Below, in pieces: positions 5,689 through 20,281 of a stretch of 64,000 bases of DNA. Below the pieces are notes generated by a model. It was not told the origin of the DNA. It ran no database searches and saw only the letters and a program-made list of their open reading frames with translations. Made by a program: the position numbers and the translations under genes. This stretch comes from Polyangiales bacterium (lineage in GTDB: Bacteria; Myxococcota_A; Polyangia; Polyangiales; Ga0077539), in the NCBI GenBank assembly GCA_046351535.1, contig JAXLYG010000005.1:357334-421333 (forward strand), in the 5' to 3' direction. Each line of letters starts with the position of its first letter. Within the stretch, counting starts at the first letter, position 1.

Positions 5689-6606
5689 TCACCCCGCGTC
5701 GGGGTCGTACCGGATGTCTCCGCTGTGTGACGGATCGTAGCCCGGCACGCCCGACAGCATCGCGCGCAGCTCCGCCGACTGCGCCACCTCGCAGAGCCGC
5801 ACCACCGCGGGCGTGCCGAGATCGGCGCTCCGCACGAGCAGCCCGTAGCGCTCGCTGGCGATCAACTGGAACGCGAGCCCGAAGCGCGCCGCCAGCGCGT
5901 GCGTCGTGAGGCCCACCTCGGCCTCCGCGCGCTGCACGGTCTCGCAGACCTCCGCGTGCGACGCGCACACGATCGCGCCCGAGAGCGCCTGCTTGTGATC
6001 GACCTTCGCGGCGCGCAGCGCTTCGATCAGGTGACCGTACACGCCCGCCGTGCTCGGCCTCGACGCGACCTGAACGCGATGCAGCCCCTTGAGCGAGGGA
6101 AAGCGCTCGCCCGGCCGCACCGCGAGACCCACCTCGCGCTCCACGAGGTGAATCCGCGCGAGCCTCGCCTCGCCCGCGCGCGACGGAGGGAGGCCGCCGT
6201 GACTGCCCGCGGCCGTCACCATCCCCTCGGCGAGCCAGCGGAGCGCGAGCGAGCGGTCGGATTGCACGAAGCCCCACAGCGTCTTTGCGCCCGCGTTGAG
6301 GCGCTCCATCAGCATGCGCACCACCACGTCTCCGTTCGCGGCGAGGAGCGGCGGCGGGCGCGCGGAGACCTCGTCTGCGACCGGACGCACGCTCGCAGAG
6401 GGCGCTTCGGGGAGCGCCTCGGCGCCGCGCGACCAGGCCAGCACCTCGTCGCGGCGAAAGCGCCACTCGCCGCCGACGCGACGTCCGGGCAGTCCGCGCT
6501 TGAGCAGGCGGTAGATGTGCTTCGGGTGCACGCGGAGAAGCTCCGCGACGTCGCGACTCGTGAGCAGCGGCGCGTCGTCGGTGTGCGTCGTCATCGCGCG
6601 GAGCAT
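5689..6606 (-). CDS. Transcriptional regulator: excisionase/MerR-type HTH plus PBP-like (molybdate-binding-like) substrate-binding domain
   Basis: LLTSRDVAELLRVHPKHIYRLLKRG HTH at N-terminus. The real start is probably the internal ATG at 6606 (MLRAMTTH); the longer ORF to 6942 is Arg-rich. Divergent from the transporter gene. Confidence 0.6.
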   Translation of the reverse strand: MLRAMTTHTDDAPLLTSRDVAELLRVHPKHIYRLLKRGLPGRRVGGEWRFRRDEVLAWSRGAEALPEAPSASVRPVADEVSARPPPLLAANGDVVVRMLMERLNAGAKTLWGFVQSDRSLALRWLAEGMVTAAGSHGGLPPSRAGEARLARIHLVEREVGLAVRPGERFPSLKGLHRVQVASRPSTAGVYGHLIEALRAAKVDHKQALSGAIVCASHAEVCETVQRAEAEVGLTTHALAARFGLAFQLIASERYGLLVRSADLGTPAVVRLCEVAQSAELRAMLSGVPGYDPSHSGDIRYDPDAG

Positions 6607-6829
6607 CGCCCCAAATCCACCCCGGCAGGAACCTCCGACGTGTGGGCCTCGAAAGGAAACCAGTTGCAACGAGATGGAACCATCGGTAGCAACGCGGGAG
6701 CTCAATGAGACCTTTCGGGCCACCAACGCCTCTCCGCGCGCGTCCGCCCGGCGCCTCGCGTGGGCCGCTGTCACCCGCCCGCGCCGCGCACCCCTCGACG
6801 CGCGTCTGCGACTCGATGCGCGAACCCCG

Positions 6830-8026
6830 GTGGCACCGTTGAACTCGTCGAACCTCTCCTCCAGGCTCCGCTTCGATCGGCACGAGCTCGCGGGCGCCTT
6901 CGGAGACATCGGGACCGACCTCCCGCTGCTCATCGCGCTCATCGCGACGTGCGGACTCGACGCGGCGAGCGTCTGCGTGATGTTCGGGCTGCTCCAGATC
7001 GCGACGGGGATCCTCTACGGGATCCCCATGCCCGTGCAGCCGCTCAAGGCAATGGCCGCGATCATGCTCGCGCAGCGCCTCTCCGCGGGGACCCTCGCGG
7101 GCGGCGGTCTCGTCATCGGCGTGTCGATGTTCCTCCTCGCGGTGACGGGGCTCCTCGACACGCTCGTTCGCGTGGTGCCCAGGGAGGTCGTCCGCGGGAT
7201 CCAGTTCGGCCTCGGCGTGACCCTCGCGACGCTCGCGCTCAAGGAGTACGCGCGCGCCGACGGCCTCCCCGGCTACGCGCTCGCGCTCGTGTCGGTGGTC
7301 GCGCTGCTCGTGTTGCGGAGGCAGCAGCGCGTGCCCGCGCCGCTCGTCGTGATGGCCCTCGGGCTCGCCTACGCCGTCACGGTGAAGCTCGGCGACGGGT
7401 CGTTCCACGGCGCCGTGGGGCTGCGGCTGCCGTCGTTCCACACGCCGACGCGCGCGGAGATCACGCAGGGGGCGCTGCTCCTCGCGCTCCCGCAGATCCC
7501 CTTGTCGCTTGGCAACTCGGTGATCGCCACGAGCCAGACGACGCGAGACCTCTTTCCCCAGCGCGCGGTGTCGGTGCGAAAGATCGGCTTCACCTACGCG
7601 GCGATGAACCTCATCGCGCCGTGGTTCGGTGGGGTTCCCGTCTGTCACGGCTGCGGCGGCCTCGTGGGCTTCTACGGCTTCGGCGCGCGCACGGGGGGAG
7701 CGCCCGTGCTCTACGGCGCGATGTACCTCGTCCTCGGTCTCTTCTTCGCGCCCGGGTTCGCGCGCGTCGTCCACGTCTTTCCGATGCCGCTGCTCGGCGT
7801 GGTGCTGCTCTTCGAAGCCGTCGCGCTCATGACGCTCGTGCGCGACGTGGCGAACGAGTCGAGCTCGCTCTGGGTCGCGCTCGCGGTCGCCGCCGTGGTG
7901 GTGGGGCTCCCCTACGGCTACCTCGTGGGCCTCGTCGCGGGCACGCTCATCGTCTGGGGCGTGCGCCGCGGATGGGTGAAGACCCCCTCGATCGCCGTCT
8001 CCGACACGACGCCGTCGACGGGGTGA
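6830..8026 (+). CDS. MOT1/SulP-like family membrane permease (putative molybdate/sulfate transporter)
   Basis: Hallmark N-terminal motif ELAGAFGDIGTDLPL (MOT1-type GDLGT). About 10 predicted TM helices. Start is uncertain: GTG 6830 or ATG 6671. Confidence 0.55.
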   Translation: MAPLNSSNLSSRLRFDRHELAGAFGDIGTDLPLLIALIATCGLDAASVCVMFGLLQIATGILYGIPMPVQPLKAMAAIMLAQRLSAGTLAGGGLVIGVSMFLLAVTGLLDTLVRVVPREVVRGIQFGLGVTLATLALKEYARADGLPGYALALVSVVALLVLRRQQRVPAPLVVMALGLAYAVTVKLGDGSFHGAVGLRLPSFHTPTRAEITQGALLLALPQIPLSLGNSVIATSQTTRDLFPQRAVSVRKIGFTYAAMNLIAPWFGGVPVCHGCGGLVGFYGFGARTGGAPVLYGAMYLVLGLFFAPGFARVVHVFPMPLLGVVLLFEAVALMTLVRDVANESSSLWVALAVAAVVVGLPYGYLVGLVAGTLIVWGVRRGWVKTPSIAVSDTTPSTG

Positions 8027-8036
8027 GGGGGCGTGC

Positions 8037-8897
8037 TCACCGACCGCTGTTGACGTAGCGCCAGCCGAAGCGCCCCTTGATGCAGAGGTGTCCGTTGGTC
8101 ACCGACGACTCGACGGGCGACGTGACCTTCACCACCTGATCGTCTTGCACGTGCAGCGTCACGGCGCAGCCGACGCCGCAGTACGGGCACACCGTCGTGG
8201 TCGCCGTCTGCCGCTCGGGCGCCCAGGTCCCCTCGGCGCGCATCCGATGCTCGTCGCGGAACATCAGCGCTCCCGTGGGACACACCCCCACGCAGTTGCC
8301 GCAGAACACGCACGCCGACGCGGGGAGGCCCACTTCGAACTCCGTCGCGATGCGCGCTTCGAAGCCGCGTCCCGCGACGGAGATCGCGAAGGTGTTCTGC
8401 GCGTCGTCGCCGCACGCCTCGACGCATTTGTAACAGAGCACGCACTTCGAATAGTCGCGGACGAAGAGGTCGTTGTCGTCCTTCACGGGCTGCGCGACGG
8501 TGGCGCCGTCGAAGCGTTCGGGGGCGGCGCCGTAGCGCGCTCCCCACGTGCGCAGCGTGTCGGAGAGGGCCGTGTCGACGGACGACGCGAGGAGCTCGAT
8601 CACGACCTTGCGCGAGACGCGCACGCGCTCGGAGTCGGTGCGGACGACCATGCCGGGCTCGGCCTTTCGCGAGCACGACGCGACGAGGGTGCGAGCGCCT
8701 TCGAGCTCGACGACGCACACGCGGCACACGTTCACGGGCGTGAGGTTGTCGGCCTGACAGAGCGTCGGCACGTCGATGCCGAGGGCCCTGCACGCGTCGA
8801 GGATGGTCGCCCCTTCGGGGACGCGCGCGACCCTGCCGTCGATGCTGAGCTCGACGACGCGATCGACGGAGTGCGTGACGATGGGGAGATGCTTCAT
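8037..8897 (-). CDS. NuoG-N-terminal/HoxU-like iron-sulfur subunit (2Fe-2S, two 4Fe-4S, MopB-type 4Fe-4S) of NAD-linked formate dehydrogenase
   Basis: 2Fe-2S ferredoxin Cys pattern, CxxCxxCxxxCP motifs, and C-terminal CPYCGVGC...GHLCIKGRFGW (the N-terminal cluster domain normally fused to FdhA). Confidence 0.8.
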   Translation of the reverse strand: MKHLPIVTHSVDRVVELSIDGRVARVPEGATILDACRALGIDVPTLCQADNLTPVNVCRVCVVELEGARTLVASCSRKAEPGMVVRTDSERVRVSRKVVIELLASSVDTALSDTLRTWGARYGAAPERFDGATVAQPVKDDNDLFVRDYSKCVLCYKCVEACGDDAQNTFAISVAGRGFEARIATEFEVGLPASACVFCGNCVGVCPTGALMFRDEHRMRAEGTWAPERQTATTTVCPYCGVGCAVTLHVQDDQVVKVTSPVESSVTNGHLCIKGRFGWRYVNSGR

Positions 8898-9300
8898 GAG
8901 AGGCCCCCTCCCCGTCCCTCCCCCGCGAAGCGGGGAGGGATGCTGAGAGGCCCCCTCCCCGTCCCTCCCCCGCGAAGCGGGAGGTGCCTGTTGGTAGCTG
9001 GCATGCCCTCACCCCGGCCCTCTCCCGCCGAGGCGGGAGAGGGAGGCTCGGCGAGAGGCAGCGGCGCACGGCGCCCAGGCACCTCGTTGCATCGAAATCA
9101 CCTCTCGCCTCAGCCCCTCGCCCGTTCGCACGTCTGCTCGCACGTCTGCCCACTCCTTCGCCCGCTCGCCCGCCCGCACCCCCGCGCCCTCGTGGCACCC
9201 GTGCGCTCCCTCTCCCGCCTCTGGCGGGGAGCAGGGCGGGGCATTCCAGCTACCAACAGGCACCCTCTCCCGCTTCGCGGGGAGGGACGAGAGGGGCTCG
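8898..9300. repeat. Cluster of REP-like palindromic elements forming a large inverted-repeat structure (MITE-like)
   Basis: Two tandem copies of gagaggccccctccccgtccctcccccgcgaagcggggaggg (8899-8984). tgcctgttggtagctggcatgccc (8985-9008) is inverted at 9238-9262. Further palindromes ctctcccgccgaggcgggagaggg and ccctctcccgcttcgcggggaggg lie on the right arm. Confidence 0.65.
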
Positions 9301-11109
9301 ACGCCCCTCCAGGCCAGAGCGCGAGCTTCACGACGGCGGACTCCACGGCGCTCGACGCGGTCTGTCCGAGGCCGCAGATCGACGCGTCGCGCATGCACGC
9401 GGAGAGCTCTCGCAGCAGCGCGAGGTCTGTGTCTCGCTGCGCGCGTCGATCGGGGCGCGCGAGGCGCTCGATGAGCTCGTGCTGGCGCACGGTGCCCACG
9501 CGACAGGGCGTGCACTGGCCGCACGACTCCTCGCGGAAGAAGCGCGCGATGCGCGCGAGCACGGGGCCGATGGAGACCGAATCGTCGAGCACGAGCACCA
9601 CGCCCGAGCCCAGCGTCGTGCCGCGCGCGCGCGCGTCTTCGAGGGTGAGCGGCATGTCGAGGTGCTCGGCCGTGACGAAGGTGCCCGCGGCGCCGCCGAG
9701 CAGGATCGCCTGCAGCGAGCGGCCCTCGCGGAGCCCGCCCGCGGCCTCGACGAGCGCGCCGAGCGTGACGCCGAAGGGCAGCTCGTACACGCCCGGCGCG
9801 CGCACGCCGAGACGCAGAAGAGCCTCGTGCCGGGCGATCCCTTCGTGCCGAGCGCGCGGTACGCGGCGGCGCCCTCGCGCACGATGACGGGCACGTTGAG
9901 CAGCGTCTCGACGTTGTGAATGAGCGTCGGCTGACCGAAGAGGCCTTCGTCGACGGGAAAGGGCGGCTTCGTCCGGGGCTCTCCGCGGTAGCCCTCGATG
10001 GAGTTGAGCAGCGCCGTCTCTTCGCCGCAGATGTACGCGCCCGCGCCGATCCTGAGGTCGATGTCGAAGCGCGCGCCGCGCCCCATCACGTCGTCGCCGA
10101 GGAGGCCCATCGACCGCGCCTGCGCGATGGCGTTCGCGAGGCGCTCGCGGGCCAGCGGGTACTCGCCGCGGAGGTAGATCCAGCCCTTCTCGGCGCCGAC
10201 GGTGACGCCCGCGAGGGTCATCGCTTCGACGAGCGCGAAGGGGTCGCCTTCGAGGAGCGCGCGGTCTTTGAACGTCCCGGGTTCAGACTCGTCGGCGTTG
10301 CAGACGACGTGCTTCACGCGGCCCGCGGCCTTCGCCACGGCCATCCACTTTCGCCCCGCGGGAAAGGCCGCGCCGCCGCGTCCCGAGAGCCCCGACTCGT
10401 CGAGCTCGCGCATCACCCACGCGGCGCCGACCTCGAATGCTCGACGGAGCGCCGCATAGCCGCCGTGCGCGCGGTACGCGTCGAGGCTCTGCGGGTCGAC
10501 CTCGCCCACGCGCGCGAGGAGCCTCACCGCGGAGCGATCGGTCTGCGGCGTCGGCGCGCGCTCGGGGATCGCGACGTGACGCGTTCGAAGCGCCGCGCGC
10601 ACCGACGCTTCGGTGGCGTGACCGAAGCTGCGTTCGAAGGGGCTCTCGCCCGCGGAGACGAGCATCGCCGCGGGCGCCTGCTCGCACATCCCGAGGCACG
10701 GCGAGCGGTGCCAGGTCGTCGCGGGGTCGTCGTGTGACGGCGCGCCGTGGTGTCCGACGGAGCGTTCGAGCGCGTGGCAGAGGTCCTCTGCGCCCGCGGC
10801 GAGGCAGGCGACGTCGTCGCAGACGTGCGCCACGACGGGGGGGCGCTCGGCGAGCGCGAAGAGCGCGTAGAAGCTCGCCACGCCGTAGGCCTCCGCGGGC
10901 GGAACGTGGAGCTTCTGGCACGCGTAGCCGAGGGCGCTCGGAGAGATCCACCCGAAGCGCCCTTGAATGGCGTGGAGCGTCGGGAGGAGGAGGTGACGGC
11001 GTGCGCGCGCGCTTCGAAGCGAGACGCGGTCATCGAGGGGGCCGAGCGAGGCGTCGATGAGGGCGCGCTCGTCGTCGGTGGCTTCGGTTGCGATGGGGCG
11101 GAGGTCCAC
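9110..11109 (-). pseudogene. NuoE-NuoF fusion (HoxF/FdsGB-like NAD(H)-binding diaphorase subunit) with an apparent frameshift near 9805-9840
   Basis: NuoE-like 2Fe-2S region, then NuoF motifs (GRGGAAFPAGRKW, CNADESEPGTFKDR, GAGAYICGEETALLNS...). Frame breaks after GTRLFCVS and resumes in ORF 9110..9805 with RAPGVYELPFGV...ESCGQCTPCRVG...ICGLGQTA. The C-terminus reads into the REP cluster. Confidence 0.7.
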
Positions 11110-11133: not shown

Positions 11134-13047
11134 TCAGACGGCGGTTGCAGACGCTTCGGAGGCGGCGCGCTCGACGCGAACGGCGGCGGCCTTGAACTCC
11201 GCGGTGCCCGAGCGGGGGTCCGTCGCGTCGATCGTGAGCGCGTTCGTGTCGACCTCGTCGGGAAAGTGAAAGGTCATGAACACGAGCCCGTCGCGCAGCC
11301 CGTGATCGACGCGGAGGGGCGCGACCACGGAGCCTCTGCGAGAGACGACGCGCACGCGCTCTCCGTCACGGAGGCCGAGGCGCTTCGCGTCGCCGGGAGA
11401 CATGTCGACGGTCTCGCCGCGACGGAGCGGAGACGAGAGCGCCGCGGTCTGCACGCCGGTGTTGTACGAGTCGAGCCGACGGCCCGTCGTGAGCGTGAGG
11501 GGGAACTCCGGCGAGAGGTGCTCCACGGGGCCCTCGTTGAGCACCACGGAGAACGGCGCCGCGGGGCCCACCCTCGGCTCGGCCCAGAGCCGCGCGTGAA
11601 GGAAGGGCGTCCCCGGGTGCGTCTCGTCGGGGCACGGCCACTGGATCCCGCCGAGCTCCTCGAGCCGCGCGTAGCTCATCCCGTGGTGCATGGGGCTCAG
11701 CGATCGCATCTCGTCCCAGAGCGCTTCGGGCGATGCCGGTCCGAGGTCGCGCCCCATCCTCCGCGCGATCTCCGCGATGATCGTGACGTCGTCCTTCGCG
11801 CTCCCCGGCGGACGCATCGCGGCCCTGACCCGTTGCACCCTGCGCTCGGAGTTGGTGACCGTCCCCTCGCTCTCGCTCCAGCTCGACGAAGCCGGGAGCA
11901 CGACGTGGGCGAGCTCCGCGGTGGCCGTTCGAAACACGTCTTGCACGACGACGAAATCGACGCCGCCGATGAGCCGCCGCGCGCGGTGCCCGTCGGCCTC
12001 GCTCTGCGCGGGGTTCTCGCCGATGATGTAGAGCGCGCGCATCTCGCCGCGCTCCATCGCGTGGAACATCTCCGTGAGGTGCCAGCCCTTCTTCGGCGGG
12101 ATGGTGCAGCCCCAGAGCGCGCCGTAGCGGCCGCGCACGGCGTCATCTTCGACGTCTTGAAAGCCAGGGAGCTTGTGCGGGAGCGCGCCCATGTCTCCGC
12201 CGCCCTGGACGTTGTTCTGTCCGCGCAGGGGGTTGAGCCCCGCGCCCCAGCGCCCGACGTTCCCCGTGGCGAGGCCGAGGTTGATGAGCGAGAGCACGTT
12301 GTCGACGGCGTTGTGGTGCTCGGTGATCCCGAGCGTCCAGCAGATCATCGCGCGGTCGGCCTTCGCGTACTCCCGCGCCATGCGCGTGATGAGCTCCCGC
12401 GGGACCCCCGTCACCTGCTCGGCGCGCTCCAGCGTCCACGGGAGCACCGAGGCCCGCCACGCTTCGAAGCCCACCGTCGCGTTACGGATGAAGCTCTCTC
12501 GCACCAGGCCCTCGGTCACGATCACGCGACCCACCGCGCACGCGAGCGCGATGTCGCTGCCCACCCGCAGCGGGAGCCACCCCTCGGCCCAGCGCGCCGA
12601 CGAGGTCTCCCGCGGATCGACGACGTAGAGCCTCGCGCCGCGGTGCACCGCCTTGAGCACGTGGTGAAAGAAGATGGGGTGCGTCTCGCGGGCGTTGGAG
12701 CCCCAGAGGATCACCACGTCGGTGTCCTCGACCTCGCGGTACGAGCTCGTGCTCCCGCCCGCTCCGAATACCGTCGCCAGACCGACGACGCTCGGGGCGT
12801 GTCAGGTTCTGTTGCAACTGTCGATGTTGTTGCTGCCCATCACCGCGCGGGTGAACTTCTGCGCGAGGTAGTTCACCTCGTTGGTCGCCTTCGAACAGCT
12901 GAACACCCCGAAGGCGTTGCCGCCGTGATTGTCGCGCGCCGCGCGAAAGCCCTCGGCGACGCGCGTGAGGGCCTCGTCCCAGGTCGCGGGTCGAAGCGCG
13001 CCGTCGGCGTCGCGAACGAGGGGCTCGGTGATGCGTGCGAGGGTCAT
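11134..13047 (-). CDS. fdhA: Formate dehydrogenase catalytic (molybdopterin) subunit, selenocysteine-containing (in-frame TGA near 12802-12804)
   Basis: Two ORFs (12802..13047 and 11134..12717) joined by TGA in the conserved motif NIDSCNRT-U-HAPSVVGLATVFG (compare E. coli FdhF CARV-U-HGPSVAGL). Molybdopterin oxidoreductase motifs follow. Strong AAGGAG RBS before the ATG at 13047. Confidence 0.85.
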
Positions 13048-13352
13048 GGAGGCTCCTTCGAGGGGCGATCCTACACCCGCGCAAAGCCCTGAAAAGAAGC
13101 GATTCCCTGACGCGGCAGGTCAACCCGTGACGCGACCCTCTCGGACCCATCGGAGGGACCCGACGCCCCCGGCGACCCGCGTGACATCCGCCAGAAGGGC
13201 TCGAACCCCACCATGAAAGGGGCGTATCGTGCGCGGGCGGCGCTTCGTGCGTGAACACGGAGCGCGCGGTGGCGGGCACATCAACGCACGGCTTTCTCTG
13301 TGAAACGGTCCCGATCTTGCGAACGATCGCGCCCCGCAAGGAGAGGTTCCCG

Positions 13353-16672: not shown

Positions 16673-17820
16673 CCGACCTCGAAGACCTCGCGTGGGTGCT
16701 CTCCGTCGACGCGCTCGACCGCTCGTGGCGCGAGCTCATGGAGGCGGGTGTGATCTTCGAGGCCGCGGGCGAGCTGCGCCTCGCGGCGAGCGCCTACGAC
16801 CTCGCGTACGGGGCCGCGCCCGACGAGGCCATCGTGGTCGCCGCGCGGCGTCGCGTGCTCGATCAGCTCGTGGTGCGAGAGCACGGGCTGGTGTTCCGCT
16901 ACGTGCCCGCGGGCGCCTTCGTGATGGGCAACGACGAGGGCGAGCCCGACGAGCGACCGGCGCACCGCGTCACGCTCGGCGGCTTCTGGATCACCGACGT
17001 GCCCATCACGTGGGCCGCGTACTGTCGGCTCATGGGCTGGGCGTCGCCGCCTGACGGCGTACCGCCCGAGATCGCCGAGCGCGAGACCGCGACGAGGGAC
17101 GACGACGACGCCTTCGACCGCGCCGCGTTCAGCCTCTACGAGGACAACAAGATCCGCTTGCAGTACTGCGAGTCGCACACGACGGGCGCCGCCGACTGGC
17201 ACGCGCACCTCGCGATCACGCCCGAGAGCGGGCTGCGCGACCTCTTTCCCGAGCCTCCGAGAGACGACGTCGAGGCCCCCGAGAGCTGGGATGACAAGCC
17301 CATGGTCGCCGTGGGCTGGTACGACGCCGAGGCGCTCACCGAGCACCTCTCGACCTCCGACGTTCACTACTGGCTCCCCTCGGAGGCCGAGTGGGAGAAG
17401 GCCGCGCGCGGCGGACTCCGCGGCTGCCTCTACCCCTGGGGAGCGGAGCCTCCGAGCGCGGCGCGGTGTGATTTCGGCGCGCTCGAGCGCGTGTCGATCA
17501 ACGTGCCGCGCGCCTACGCGCCCAACGGCTACGGCCTCCACGCGATGGTCGGCACCGTGTGGGAGTGGACCCACGACTGGTACGACGCCGACGCCTACGA
17601 ACACGCCACGGAGAGCGACCCCGAGGGCCCGCCCGACGGCCAGCAGAAGGTGCTCCGCGGCGGCTCGTGGACCGACTGCGAAGACGTGTGCACCGTGACC
17701 TGGCGCATGGGCCTCGCGCCCTCGACCTGGCGCGACGGACGCGGCGATCACAGCAACCCCAACATCGGCTTTCGCATCGTGCGTCACGACACGCGCGCGC
17801 ACGGCGTCGAGCGTCCGTGA
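16669..17820 (+). CDS. Formylglycine-generating enzyme (FGE/SUMF1) family protein
   Basis: Motifs GGFWITDVPITWAAY, WLPSEAEWEKAARGG, GTVWEWTHDWYD, VLRGGSW, with a C-terminal Cys pair CEDVC. GTG start overlaps the upstream stop. Confidence 0.8.
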   Translation: MTDLEDLAWVLSVDALDRSWRELMEAGVIFEAAGELRLAASAYDLAYGAAPDEAIVVAARRRVLDQLVVREHGLVFRYVPAGAFVMGNDEGEPDERPAHRVTLGGFWITDVPITWAAYCRLMGWASPPDGVPPEIAERETATRDDDDAFDRAAFSLYEDNKIRLQYCESHTTGAADWHAHLAITPESGLRDLFPEPPRDDVEAPESWDDKPMVAVGWYDAEALTEHLSTSDVHYWLPSEAEWEKAARGGLRGCLYPWGAEPPSAARCDFGALERVSINVPRAYAPNGYGLHAMVGTVWEWTHDWYDADAYEHATESDPEGPPDGQQKVLRGGSWTDCEDVCTVTWRMGLAPSTWRDGRGDHSNPNIGFRIVRHDTRAHGVERP

Positions 17821-19115
17821 GCGCGCGTCCGCCGCTGGTGCTCGTCGCGCAGCACTTCGGCGCGACGGTCTTCGATCGGCGCACCTCGCGCTACGCGCCC
17901 TTCGATCACGAGGGGGCGAGGCTCCTCCGAGAGACGCTCGAAAAGCCCTTCTACGCGGTCATTTCGGCGTGCGAAGACCCCGACGATCGCGCCGCCGTGA
18001 CGGACTTCTTCGAAGACCTCGAGGCGCGCGGCTACTTCGATCTGCAAGGTCGCCTCGCGGGCGTCGCGCTCGACGTGAGAGACGTTCCGCCCGATCACCT
18101 CGTGGGGCCGCTCGCGGTGCATCAGGAGGTGGTCGCCGCGTGCAACCTCACCTGCGCGCACTGCTTCGCGGGGGAGCTCCCGCGCCGCGCGTCGCCCCTC
18201 ACGCTCTCGGAGCTCGACGCGCTCTTCGCCGACCTCGCCGCGCTCGGCAGCTTTCGCCTCGGAATCACGGGCGGCGAGCCGCTCTTACGGAAGGACTTAT
18301 TCGAAGTCCTCGACGCCGCGACGGCGCGCGGTCTGCACCCCTGCGTGACGACCAACGCGCTGCTCATCGACGACCGCATCGCGCGGGAGTTCGGCCGTCG
18401 CGAGCTCGTGTGGCTCAACGTGAGCCTCGACGGCGCCACGGCCGCGAGCAACGACCGCGTGCGCGGTCAGGGCGTCTTCGATCGCGTGCGGGAGCGCCTC
18501 GTCACGCTCGGCCGTCACGCGCGCTTCACGCTGGCCTTCACGGTGATGCGCCACAACGCCGCCGAGGTCGAAGACTGCGCGCGCCTCGCGGCCGAGGTGG
18601 GCGCGCACACGGCCGTGTTCCGTCCGCTCTACCCCGTGGGCGTCGCGCGCGAGCACCCCGAGCTCATGCCCTCATTCGAAGACTACGCCGGCGCGCTCAC
18701 GCGCCTCTCGTCGATGACCGCGCTCGACCTCGGGGAGCACGACCTCCGCGCGGTCGATCCCTTCAGCCCCACGAGTCGTGACGCGGGGCGCGCGACGGCG
18801 GTCGATGACCTCGCGTGCGGCGCCGGCGCGACGGTGTGCTCGGTGTCGGTCTCGGGCGACGTGAACCCGTGCAGCTTTCTCGGCGACGATTTCGTCGCGG
18901 GCAACGTGCGAGCGCGCCCCTTCGCGACGATCTGGCGCGCGTCCGAGACGATGCGTCGGATGCGCGTCCCCTCCGCCGGACAGCACGGCTGCAGGGCCCG
19001 CTCGCTCGCCTTCGCGGGCGACGTCGACGCGCCCGATCCGTGGGTGACCGACGGCGCCGCGCACCCCGAGGCGATGCACCCGCTCGTGGTGCTGCGCACC
19101 TCTCCCCGCCGCTGA
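17817..19115 (+). CDS. Radical SAM/SPASM-domain enzyme with N-terminal PqqD-like RRE domain (peptide/protein maturase-like)
   Basis: CNLTCAHCF (CxxxCxxC) at about residue 110. C-terminal SPASM Cys cluster CGAGATVCSVSVSGDVNPCSF. N-terminal ~100 aa resemble PqqD/RRE (RYAPFDHEGARLLRETL...DFFEDLEARGYF). GTG overlaps the FGE stop. Confidence 0.8.
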   Translation: MSARPPLVLVAQHFGATVFDRRTSRYAPFDHEGARLLRETLEKPFYAVISACEDPDDRAAVTDFFEDLEARGYFDLQGRLAGVALDVRDVPPDHLVGPLAVHQEVVAACNLTCAHCFAGELPRRASPLTLSELDALFADLAALGSFRLGITGGEPLLRKDLFEVLDAATARGLHPCVTTNALLIDDRIAREFGRRELVWLNVSLDGATAASNDRVRGQGVFDRVRERLVTLGRHARFTLAFTVMRHNAAEVEDCARLAAEVGAHTAVFRPLYPVGVAREHPELMPSFEDYAGALTRLSSMTALDLGEHDLRAVDPFSPTSRDAGRATAVDDLACGAGATVCSVSVSGDVNPCSFLGDDFVAGNVRARPFATIWRASETMRRMRVPSAGQHGCRARSLAFAGDVDAPDPWVTDGAAHPEAMHPLVVLRTSPRR

Positions 19116-19184
19116 TTCCGCGGATGCGAACGGGGGCGCGGGGGCGCGCCACGCGGAGGCCCCGCCCGCGCTCGCGGATCATAC

Positions 19185-19235
19185 TTGCATCCATCCGTAT
19201 GAACGGATATAAGACTCCCTGCATGGATGCACCGC
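19185..19235. promoter_or_regulatory. Palindromic operator-like site (atccgtatgaacggat, nested in gcatccat...atggatgc) at the start of the ArsR-family gene
   Basis: Perfect 16-bp palindrome seen directly, overlapping the ATG of the ArsR-HTH gene. Typical autoregulatory ArsR/SmtB operator arrangement. Confidence 0.4.
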
Positions 19236-20277
19236 CGACCGAGAGCGCCGCGCCGCGAGGCCGCTGGGAGCTGTACCGGCTCCTCGCGGAGCCCTCGCGC
19301 CTGCGGCTGATGGCGCTCGCGGGCGAAGACGAGCTCGCCGTCGGGGAGCTCGCGGAGCTTCTCGGCGAGGTGCAGCCCACGGTCTCGCGGCACGTCGCGG
19401 CGCTCCGTCAGGCGGGCGTCGTGGGCGTGCGTCGGCAGGGGACGTGGACGCTCGTGCGGCTCTCGGCGACGGCGCACGACGACGCCGTGGTGGCCGACGC
19501 GCTCGCGACGGGGCGTTCGCTCTGTGAGCGCGACGGGAGCCTCACGCGCGTGGCCGAGGTGATCCGCGCGCGGGAGAGCACCACGCGGGAGTTCTTCTCT
19601 CGTCCGGGGCGCAACGGGGCGCAGCCCGGTCCGCCGTCGGAGCTCGCGGCCTACCTCGCCGCGGTGGCGCCGCTGCTCCCCGATCGCGCGCTCGCGGTCG
19701 ACGCGGGGACGGGCGACGGGCGTCTGCTCGAAGTGCTCGCGCCGCTCTATGAGCGCGTGGTGGCGGTCGATCGCTCGGCGGCGCAACTCGCCATCGCGGC
19801 CGATCGCGTGGCGCAGCGCGGCTTCGAGAACGTCGACCTCATCGAGGACGAGCTCGACGGCGCGAAGGTGCAGCGCGCGGTGCGGCAGCGGTCGAAGCGC
19901 GGCGCCGACGCGGTGTTCGCGGCGAGGGTGCTCCACCACGCGCCGAGGCCCGCGGAGACGCTCAAGGCCATCGCGTCGCTGGCCCGTCCGGGCGGCGCGA
20001 TCACGGTGATCGACTACGAGCGCCACGAGGACGAGGCCCTGCGCGCGCAGCAGGCCGACCTCTGGCTCGGCTTCGAAGCGACGGAGCTCCGCAGGGCGGC
20101 GCGCGACGCGGGGCTCGAAGAGATCCACTTCACGAAGGTGCCGGCGCTGTGGTGCGGAGGCGGCGTCGACCGCCACGTCCCCTGGGCCGTGATGACCGCG
20201 AGGGCGCCCGAGGCGACCCCCGCGAGCGATGACAGCAAGGCCGCGCCGAAGGGGCGCGCACACAACGGAGCGAAGCG

Positions 20278-20281
<4 letters not shown>
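19223..20281 (+). CDS. ArsR-family HTH regulator fused to a class I SAM-dependent methyltransferase domain
   Basis: ArsR wHTH ([41 protein letters not shown]). MTase motif [16 protein letters not shown]. Stop overlaps the ahcY ATG. Confidence 0.8.

Follow-up and report, generated by a model that had tools for sequence, protein, structure and literature searches.

Probable decoding of an in-frame UGA as selenocysteine in a Polyangiales formate dehydrogenase with a split alpha subunit

The window, by which we mean the whole 64-kb stretch of Polyangiales DNA that was analysed (G+C content, 72%), contains on its minus strand a putative formate dehydrogenase operon with the gene order Mo subunit, NuoE–NuoF fusion, and Fe-S protein (Table 1). 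Exact protein matches, among them MFO0644924.1 (PPDK), MFO0644929.1, and MFO0644960.1, assign the window to a 712,230-bp contig of a Polyangiales MAG. The NuoE–NuoF gene ends at about position 9299, and a 400-bp spacer rich in REP-like palindromes lies between it and the Fe-S gene. Besides the molybdate transporter gene, a regulator of the HTH plus periplasmic-binding-like type also flanks the operon. No match to FdhD was found anywhere in the window; fdhD lies directly upstream in loci L001 and L002 and in eight other loci.

Table 1. Positions of the genes and features of the formate dehydrogenase locus in the window
Feature	Position	Strand	Basis
Gene for the Mo/W-bis-PGD catalytic subunit of formate dehydrogenase	11134..13047	-	Translation, Pfam, TIGR01591, PDB matches
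In-frame UGA, codon 82, probably read as selenocysteine	12802..12804	-	Alignment to Sec140, conservation in relatives
Shine-Dalgarno-like AAGGAG	13053..13058	-	5 nt before the ATG at 13047; direct sequence reading
Putative SECIS upper stem-loop, GUCGUC-GGUCU-GGCGAC, candidate SelB-binding element with G23 and U24 in the loop	12773..12789	-	Fold, covariation, synonymous-site suppression
Extended hairpin with lower stem, nt 6–45, less conserved	12760..12799	-	MFE structure, weak Rfam SECIS_3
NuoE–NuoF fusion gene (2Fe-2S thioredoxin-like and FMN/NAD(H)-binding 51K)	9299..11109	-	Pfam PF01257, PF01512
Fe-S subunit gene, 286 aa (2Fe-2S, two 4Fe-4S ferredoxin motifs, Molybdop_Fe4S4)	8037..8897	-	PF13510, PF12838, PF04879
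Molybdate transporter gene MFS_MOT1, flanking the operon	6515–8026		Pfam

The Mo-subunit gene is a frame of 638 codons, and translation gave the TGA at codon 82 as its sole internal stop. The first-pass annotation had claimed that the ORF at 12802..13047, which encodes 81 aa from an ATG to this TGA, continues beyond it; this was borne out, the same frame being open to the stop at 11134. The quoted junction, NIDSCNRT followed by TGA, was likewise reproduced exactly by translation (...NNIDSCNRT*HAPSVVGLATVFGAGG...). With the stop bridged, the catalytic subunit has 637 residues before its terminal stop, and the putative selenocysteine (Sec) is residue 82. GC3 is 0.92 upstream and 0.93 downstream of the TGA, that is, the coding signature of the genome is found on both sides. 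Furthermore, among 138 distinct sequences the variability of the 40 codons upstream of the TGA is 3-periodic (0.60, 0.37, and 0.95 bits), and none of these sequences has a second stop in the 40 codons; thus, this region is apparently translated in the frame of the TGA gene. No second selenoprotein gene was found in the window, where the other five candidates with in-frame stops resemble ordinary boundaries of adjacent genes.

The joined protein matches the Pfam families Molybdopterin (PF00384, 3.7e-68) and Molydop_binding (PF01568, 9.9e-29), and its best solved structures are 7qv7_S (2e-158), 1aa6 (1.1e-139, phmmer against PDB), and 6tg9_A (9e-131). The phmmer alignment to 1aa6, Escherichia coli FDH-H, reproduces the proposed correspondence with the FdhF active site CARV-U-HGPSVAGL: the TGA codon is opposite X140 (Sec140) of the E. 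coli enzyme ('vdccarvXhgpsvagl' versus 'idscnrt-hapsvvgl'), and both the catalytic His83 following Sec82 and Arg275 in RGQNNVQG are conserved. The NCBIfam equivalog model TIGR01591 (Fdh-alpha) matches the Mo subunit over model positions 52–672 with 651.4 bits, just under the curated cut-off of 666.25, because profile positions 1–51 are encoded on the separate Fe-S protein. In fact, positions 1–50 of the model match residues 235–284 of that protein, its last 50, with 51.5 bits. The Mo subunit is thus without the 4Fe-4S domain normally found at the N-terminus.

The break in the alpha subunit falls exactly between the 4Fe-4S and Mo domains, and the Fe-S module is encoded two genes downstream. When Rhodobacter capsulatus FdsA (6tg9_A) is used as the reference, residues 15–282 of the Fe-S protein cover FdsA 25–303 and the Mo subunit covers 308–933; judged by these alignments, the Fe-S protein is the detached N-terminal module of a formate dehydrogenase alpha subunit. 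The order Mo subunit, NuoEF, Fe-S protein was found in 67 of the 68 TGA-type loci with enough downstream sequence (55 compact, 12 with inserted genes). Cys-type proteins of approximately 640 aa are also devoid of the Fe-S domain. On the strength of this recurrence and of the Cys-type proteins, the split architecture is to be read as a family trait, not as damage. Sec-type members of the split class occur in at least eight phyla and Cys-type members in actinomycetes.

TGA was found at the aligned codon in all 83 listed loci from species-representative genomes and lookups (65–99% protein identity), which include Myxococcota, Planctomycetota, Actinomycetota (Gaiellales and Solirubrobacterales), Chloroflexota, Acidobacteriota, Gemmatimonadota, Methylomirabilota, and others. 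A Cys-type query was used to fetch 80 metagenome loci, of which 61 have TGA at this codon and the other 19 have a Cys codon (TGC or TGT). In total, at least 144 other loci share the TGA, a recurrence at one codon that is far beyond what chance would be expected to produce. Two relatives with approximately 70% identity have the TGA in frame together with conservation of the upstream 80 codons. The closest homologues in a protein search (69–99% identity) are all 523–560 aa in length and cover only 82–85% of the query, which is the pattern expected from gene callers stopping at a Sec codon. An alignment to Cys-containing homologues, which had been suggested at the outset, places Cys exactly at the TGA column in the orthologues from Saccharopolyspora, Streptomyces, and Kutzneria; these are full length and 60–66% identical. 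The actinomycete orthologues, annotated as 'molybdopterin oxidoreductase family protein', share with the window protein the length of approximately 640 aa, co-linearity from the first residues, and the lack of an Fe-S domain. However, they have TGC or TGT in place of TGA, and the loop codon GGU and other frozen synonymous sites described below are not conserved in them.

The RNA following the UGA, in which the first-pass annotation had proposed to look for a bacterial SECIS, folds as a hairpin with −21.3 kcal/mol over 50 nt that starts 5 nt past the TGA. When nucleotides are numbered from the U of UGA, the upper stem of 6–7 bp pairs nt 16–21 with nt 27–32, and the apical loop is the 5-nt GGUCU at nt 22–26, 18 nt after the UGA. 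The bacterial SECIS model has a loop of 3–9 nt with G in its first two positions, an upper stem of 4–16 bp, a spacing of 16–37 nt, and an MFE of ≤ −7.5 kcal/mol (PMC13188914), and the hairpin agrees with all four constraints of that model. The stability of the hairpin is not greater than that of dinucleotide shuffles of this 72% GC sequence (z about −0.5, range −0.8 to 0.0), and the match to Rfam SECIS_3 at 12807–12749 is sub-threshold (13.8 bits versus 63, E = 6). The case for the SECIS thus comes from sequence comparison and not from folding energy.

The comparative support is as follows. In 130 distinct TGA-type sequences, the pairs of the upper stem vary mostly between pairing combinations, including a full compensatory swap at pair 18/30, and the loop is nearly constant (Table 2). 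An alignment of 79 sequences has 95.1% paired cells in the upper helix versus 78.5% in the lower helix, and its covariation score was reached by none of 500 shuffles. Fourfold degenerate sites within the top of the hairpin (sites 21, 24, and 27) are all but fixed in TGA-type genes, whereas they vary in Cys-type genes, which points to a constraint at the RNA level only where the codon is UGA. In TGA-type genes, fourfold sites just outside the hairpin top (9, 12, 36, 42, 45, and 48) have an entropy of 1.6–1.8 bits. We regard this comparison of synonymous sites between TGA-type and Cys-type genes, which carries its own internal control, as the strongest result in favour of the putative SECIS. Thus, the hairpin that had been proposed as a check was found with a GGUCU loop, fits the model, and is backed by covariation and by suppression of synonymous variation.

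Table 2. Base pairs, loop, and fourfold degenerate sites of the putative SECIS upper stem-loop (positions counted from the U of UGA)
Position	TGA-type sequences (n = 130)	Cys-type sequences (n = 19)	Remark
Pair 16/32	GC 129, GA 1		
Pair 17/31	UA 112, UG 17, UC 1		
Pair 18/30	CG 117, GC 13		Zero mismatches; full compensatory swap
Pair 19/29	GC 113, GU 17		
Pair 20/28	UG 85, CG 41, UA 4		
Pair 21/27	CG 130		Invariant
Loop 22–26	GGUCU in 129		
Fourfold site 21	C 130	C 12, G 7	
Fourfold site 24	T 129, G 1	G 10, C 8, T 1	
Fourfold site 27	G 130	G 14, C 5	

As for the Sec machinery, ARAGORN detected no tRNA gene in the 64-kb window and hence no tRNA-Sec, and a Pfam scan of approximately 39 ORFs detected no SelA, SelB, or SelD there. 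In related genomes, 11 loci have a tRNA-SeC, identified by ARAGORN, no more than 10 kb upstream of the orthologous gene; in one of these relatives (L015), a SelA gene (PF03841, 1.5e-80) and a gene for a SelD-like AIRS protein flank the tRNA-SeC. tblastn found selA or selD, mostly both, beside the orthologous operon in about 20 loci, and in the relatives of the Chloroflexota type, tRNA-Sec, selA, and selD adjoin the operon. Among bacterial selenoproteins, FdhA has the widest distribution, occurring in 67 of 75 Sec-using genomes, and its gene is often linked to sel genes; three selenoproteins of the FdhA family are recorded for the myxobacterium Anaeromyxobacter dehalogenans (PMC1794560).

Readthrough as Sec, which the first-pass annotation considered the most plausible reading of a TGA with coding conservation on both flanks, is supported on each count: the flanks have the GC3 values given above, the same aligned codon is TGA in 144 other loci, and the active-site alignment, the covariation of the SECIS, and the Cys-type control point in the same direction. 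Because of the active-site position of the codon, the conservation of TGA across phyla, the covarying stem-loop, and the control given by Sec-type versus Cys-type genes, the TGA at 12804–12802 very probably specifies Sec within the catalytic subunit of a metal-dependent formate dehydrogenase of the NAD-linked type. By analogy with E. coli fdhF, a complex of SelB, GTP, and Sec-tRNA(Sec) would bind the GGUCU loop (G23/U24) of the mRNA SECIS, and Sec-tRNA(Sec) would be brought to the UGA in the A site of the ribosome in successful competition with release factor 2; decoding of the UGA would then yield a single 637-residue protein. From the same analogy we infer the SelB and selenium steps of the decoding. 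In the enzyme, Sec82 would ligate the Mo or W of the bis-PGD cofactor and act with His83 and Arg275, and electrons would pass to the 4Fe-4S cluster of the separate Fe-S subunit, then through its further clusters to the FMN of NuoEF and to NAD+.

One alternative, to which we give a slim chance, is that the UGA is read through with another amino acid, either Cys carried on tRNA(Sec) or Trp inserted by near-cognate decoding, for example where selenophosphate synthesis has been lost. However, the SelB-type loop is strictly conserved, and TGA has been kept although it is one step from the TGC or TGT used by the actinomycete relatives. This retention of the loop and the TGA, despite a Cys codon one step away, argues for selection on Sec itself. 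The presence of selA and selD beside the operon in relatives also speaks against another amino acid.

The possibility that the gene is a pseudogene, or that TGA stands in place of TGC through an assembly or sequencing error, so that the codon is nonsense and the gene is dead in this genome, has to be weighed with the state of the adjacent gene. The NuoEF gene of the window has a 4-bp deletion between 9807 and 9806 (GGGCGGCG to GGCG) that shifts the frame, and its stop codon is lost (TG missing). The deletion site is intact in the DNA alignments to L083, L164, and L165, and the stop-codon site is intact in L083, whose NuoEF orthologue is an undamaged protein of 605 aa with SLBB and NADH_4Fe-4S domains. 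On the NuoE–NuoF product of the window, the NCBIfam models for NuoF and FdsG score below their cut-offs. Since the lesion occurs only in the window, some decay or a local assembly error in the operon is indicated; the lesion would stem either from faulty local assembly or from a mutation specific to the strain, and the NAD-linked complex may be inactive in the source genome because of it. No other obvious frameshifts were found among the window genes. The lesion has no bearing on the nature of the TGA. Against decay or error at the TGA itself, the identical codon and an intact, identical SECIS are present in four independent short-read contigs of near-identical strains with 97.6–98.8% DNA identity, namely L083 (activated-sludge metagenome) and L164–L166 (Logan assemblies). 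The Mo-subunit gene is co-linear with those of L083, L164, and L165, with zero indels over 638 codons, and has 11–26 synonymous versus 5–8 non-synonymous codon changes; this synonymous excess and the lack of indels point to purifying selection on the gene. In addition, the Cys-type relatives do not have the GGU loop codon. A pseudogene or a TGA-for-TGC error, which the first-pass annotation had named as the alternative should the sel genes and a SECIS-like hairpin be lacking, is effectively excluded by the 144 diverged loci and the four independent assemblies, and we regard it as most improbable.

It is equally hard to believe that the locus encodes two polypeptides, an 81-residue peptide ending at the TGA and a second product restarting at the GTG at 12717 or 12714 (81 aa plus 526 aa), even though automatic gene calls split the gene in this manner in every database contig. 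The 28 codons from the TGA to the first GTG, which contain the most conserved stretch of the family (HAPSVVGLATVFGAGG) with the catalytic His, would go untranslated, and no start codon or ribosome-binding site was found after the TGA. Moreover, the region is one continuous chain in the Cys-type orthologues and in the solved structures. Finally, a reassignment of TGA in the genetic code is ruled out, because TGA is the usual stop, terminating 29 of the 36 window ORFs; the code is thus standard and the recoding would be site-specific.

The Mo subunit can be compared with known formate dehydrogenases. It shares with E. coli FDH-H (FdhF; 1aa6, 1fdo) a catalytic domain homologous over FdhF residues 61–694, with Sec140, the His, and the Arg of RGQNNVQG. 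However, it is devoid of the N-terminal 4Fe-4S domain, which is borne by the separate Fe-S protein, and its partners are NuoE-, NuoF-, and NuoG-like modules, not hydrogenase 3. As for the SECIS, GGU CUG presumably also occupies nt 22–27 after the UGA in E. coli fdhF, and we take the U17/G23/U24 numbering to be that of the E. coli element; however, U17 of the window is base-paired (with A31 or G31 in the family), not bulged. The FdsABG(D) enzymes of the R. capsulatus and Cupriavidus type (6tg9) have the same modules, namely a NuoE-like 2Fe-2S, a NuoF-like FMN, a NuoG-like Fe-S, and a Mo-bis-PGD module. In contrast to the window, FdsA is a single chain, which would be cut at about its residue 305 to give the split alpha subunit, and the gene order in the window is permuted to Mo subunit, NuoE–NuoF fusion, and Fe-S module. 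Furthermore, the active-site residue is probably Sec in the window, whereas in FdsA we take it to be Cys, and the operon in the window has no FdsD or FdsC/FdhD gene next to it. The FdhF of the Thermoanaerobacter kivui HDCR (7qv7_S), the best solved-structure match (2e-158), shares the active-site motif, but has Cys at the TGA position in the alignment and a 4Fe-4S domain of its own, and is partnered by a hydrogenase module.

Full-text literature searches found no published description of the split alpha architecture, which is weak evidence of novelty; on Sec in Myxococcota, the literature gave general selenoproteome papers and nothing on a split enzyme class. Tentatively, and with more doubt than conviction, the enzyme might represent an uncharacterised, very widespread class of NAD-linked formate dehydrogenases in which the Mo/W subunit has no Fe-S cluster at all and the proximal 4Fe-4S domain is fused to the C-terminal end of a NuoG-like subunit, whose gene is the second one downstream. 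As for the decoding, the TGA gene is one more example of the commonest bacterial selenoprotein family, with the textbook SelB-mediated, SECIS-dependent mechanism, the only mildly unusual aspect being the split alpha subunit.

For annotation, our results mean that the public gene calls of 81 aa and 526 aa should be merged into one 637-residue selenoprotein and that the operon is best annotated as encoding a Sec-dependent formate dehydrogenase. For the family, the comparison of 130 sequences provides a clean natural control, in which the SECIS constraint at the RNA level is apparent in the UGA genes and absent from the Cys genes of the same family. For the organism, the finding implies that the Polyangiales population would need selenium together with molybdenum or tungsten; a molybdate transporter gene adjoins the operon.

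The alpha subunit of this formate dehydrogenase (FDH) is encoded in two pieces with a permuted gene order. The catalytic Mo subunit, in which the in-frame TGA is almost certainly read as Sec, lacks an Fe-S domain of its own; two genes downstream of it lies the gene for a NuoG-like Fe-S protein, which ends with the 4Fe-4S domain (positions 1–50 of the Fdh-alpha profile TIGR01591). Taken together, the two products cover residues 25–303 and 308–933 of FdsA, the alpha chain of the NAD+-dependent FDH of Rhodobacter capsulatus. Of 68 related loci, 67 share the order Mo subunit, NuoEF, Fe-S protein.

The NuoE–NuoF fusion gene between the two pieces is damaged in the window: a 4-bp deletion at 9806/9807 (GGGCGGCG to GGCG) shifts its frame, and its stop codon (about 9299) has lost the TG. 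DNA comparison showed that the gene is undamaged in the near-identical strains L083, L164 and L165. Either this strain carries a true mutation of its own, or the lesions reflect a local assembly error. Furthermore, nuoEF and the Fe-S gene, which overlap in the related loci L001 and L002, are separated in the window by a spacer of about 400 bp. This spacer is packed with REP-like palindromic units (CCCTCTCCCGC...GCGGGAGAGGG) and also holds a 47-nt tandem pair and a 26-nt inverted repeat with 96% complementarity; one of the repeat units contains the ATG of the Fe-S gene.

The operon adjoins genes for a molybdate transporter and a regulator, suggesting that the supply of Mo or W is controlled locally. 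The product of fdhD is a sulfurtransferase required for FDH maturation. In L001, L002 and eight other loci, fdhD immediately precedes the Mo subunit gene; none was found in the whole 64-kb window, where its place is taken by a divergent pyruvate,phosphate dikinase gene. Downstream of the latter follow a radical-SAM/SPASM gene and then genes for an ArsR-HTH methyltransferase fusion and S-adenosylhomocysteine hydrolase.

Locations of the features in the window and in related loci
Feature	Location	Strand	Remark
HTH_17 + PBP_like regulator	5689-7014	-	adjoins FDH operon
MFS_MOT1-family molybdate transporter	6515-8026	+	adjoins FDH operon
Fe-S protein gene	8037-8897	-	NuoG-like
Spacer, nuoEF/Fe-S gene	8898-9298
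NuoE–NuoF fusion gene	9299-11109	-
Mo subunit gene	11134-13047	-
Place of fdhD	13048-13250		dikinase gene
Radical-SAM/SPASM, ArsR-HTH methyltransferase fusion and S-adenosylhomocysteine hydrolase genes	17559-19115 and 18809-20281	+
fdhD	L001 8848-9681
fdhD	L002 8843-9658
Variant SECIS	L057 5259-5318		Methylomirabilota MAG
tRNA-SeC/selA/selD-like cluster	L015 1536-4528

Among the 130 distinct TGA-type sequences, only L057 has the SECIS loop GGGCU, which lacks U24, in place of GGUCU. Chloroflexota-type relatives carry a sel cluster 1.5–8 kb upstream of their Sec-FDH orthologue (L015; also L017, L021, L024, L032, L044, L047, L048, L055, L056 and L065): the gene for tRNA-SeC is directly followed by selA and accompanied by a divergent selD-like gene. 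The position of this sel cluster beside fdhA is consistent with the Sec trait and fdhA having been inherited together.
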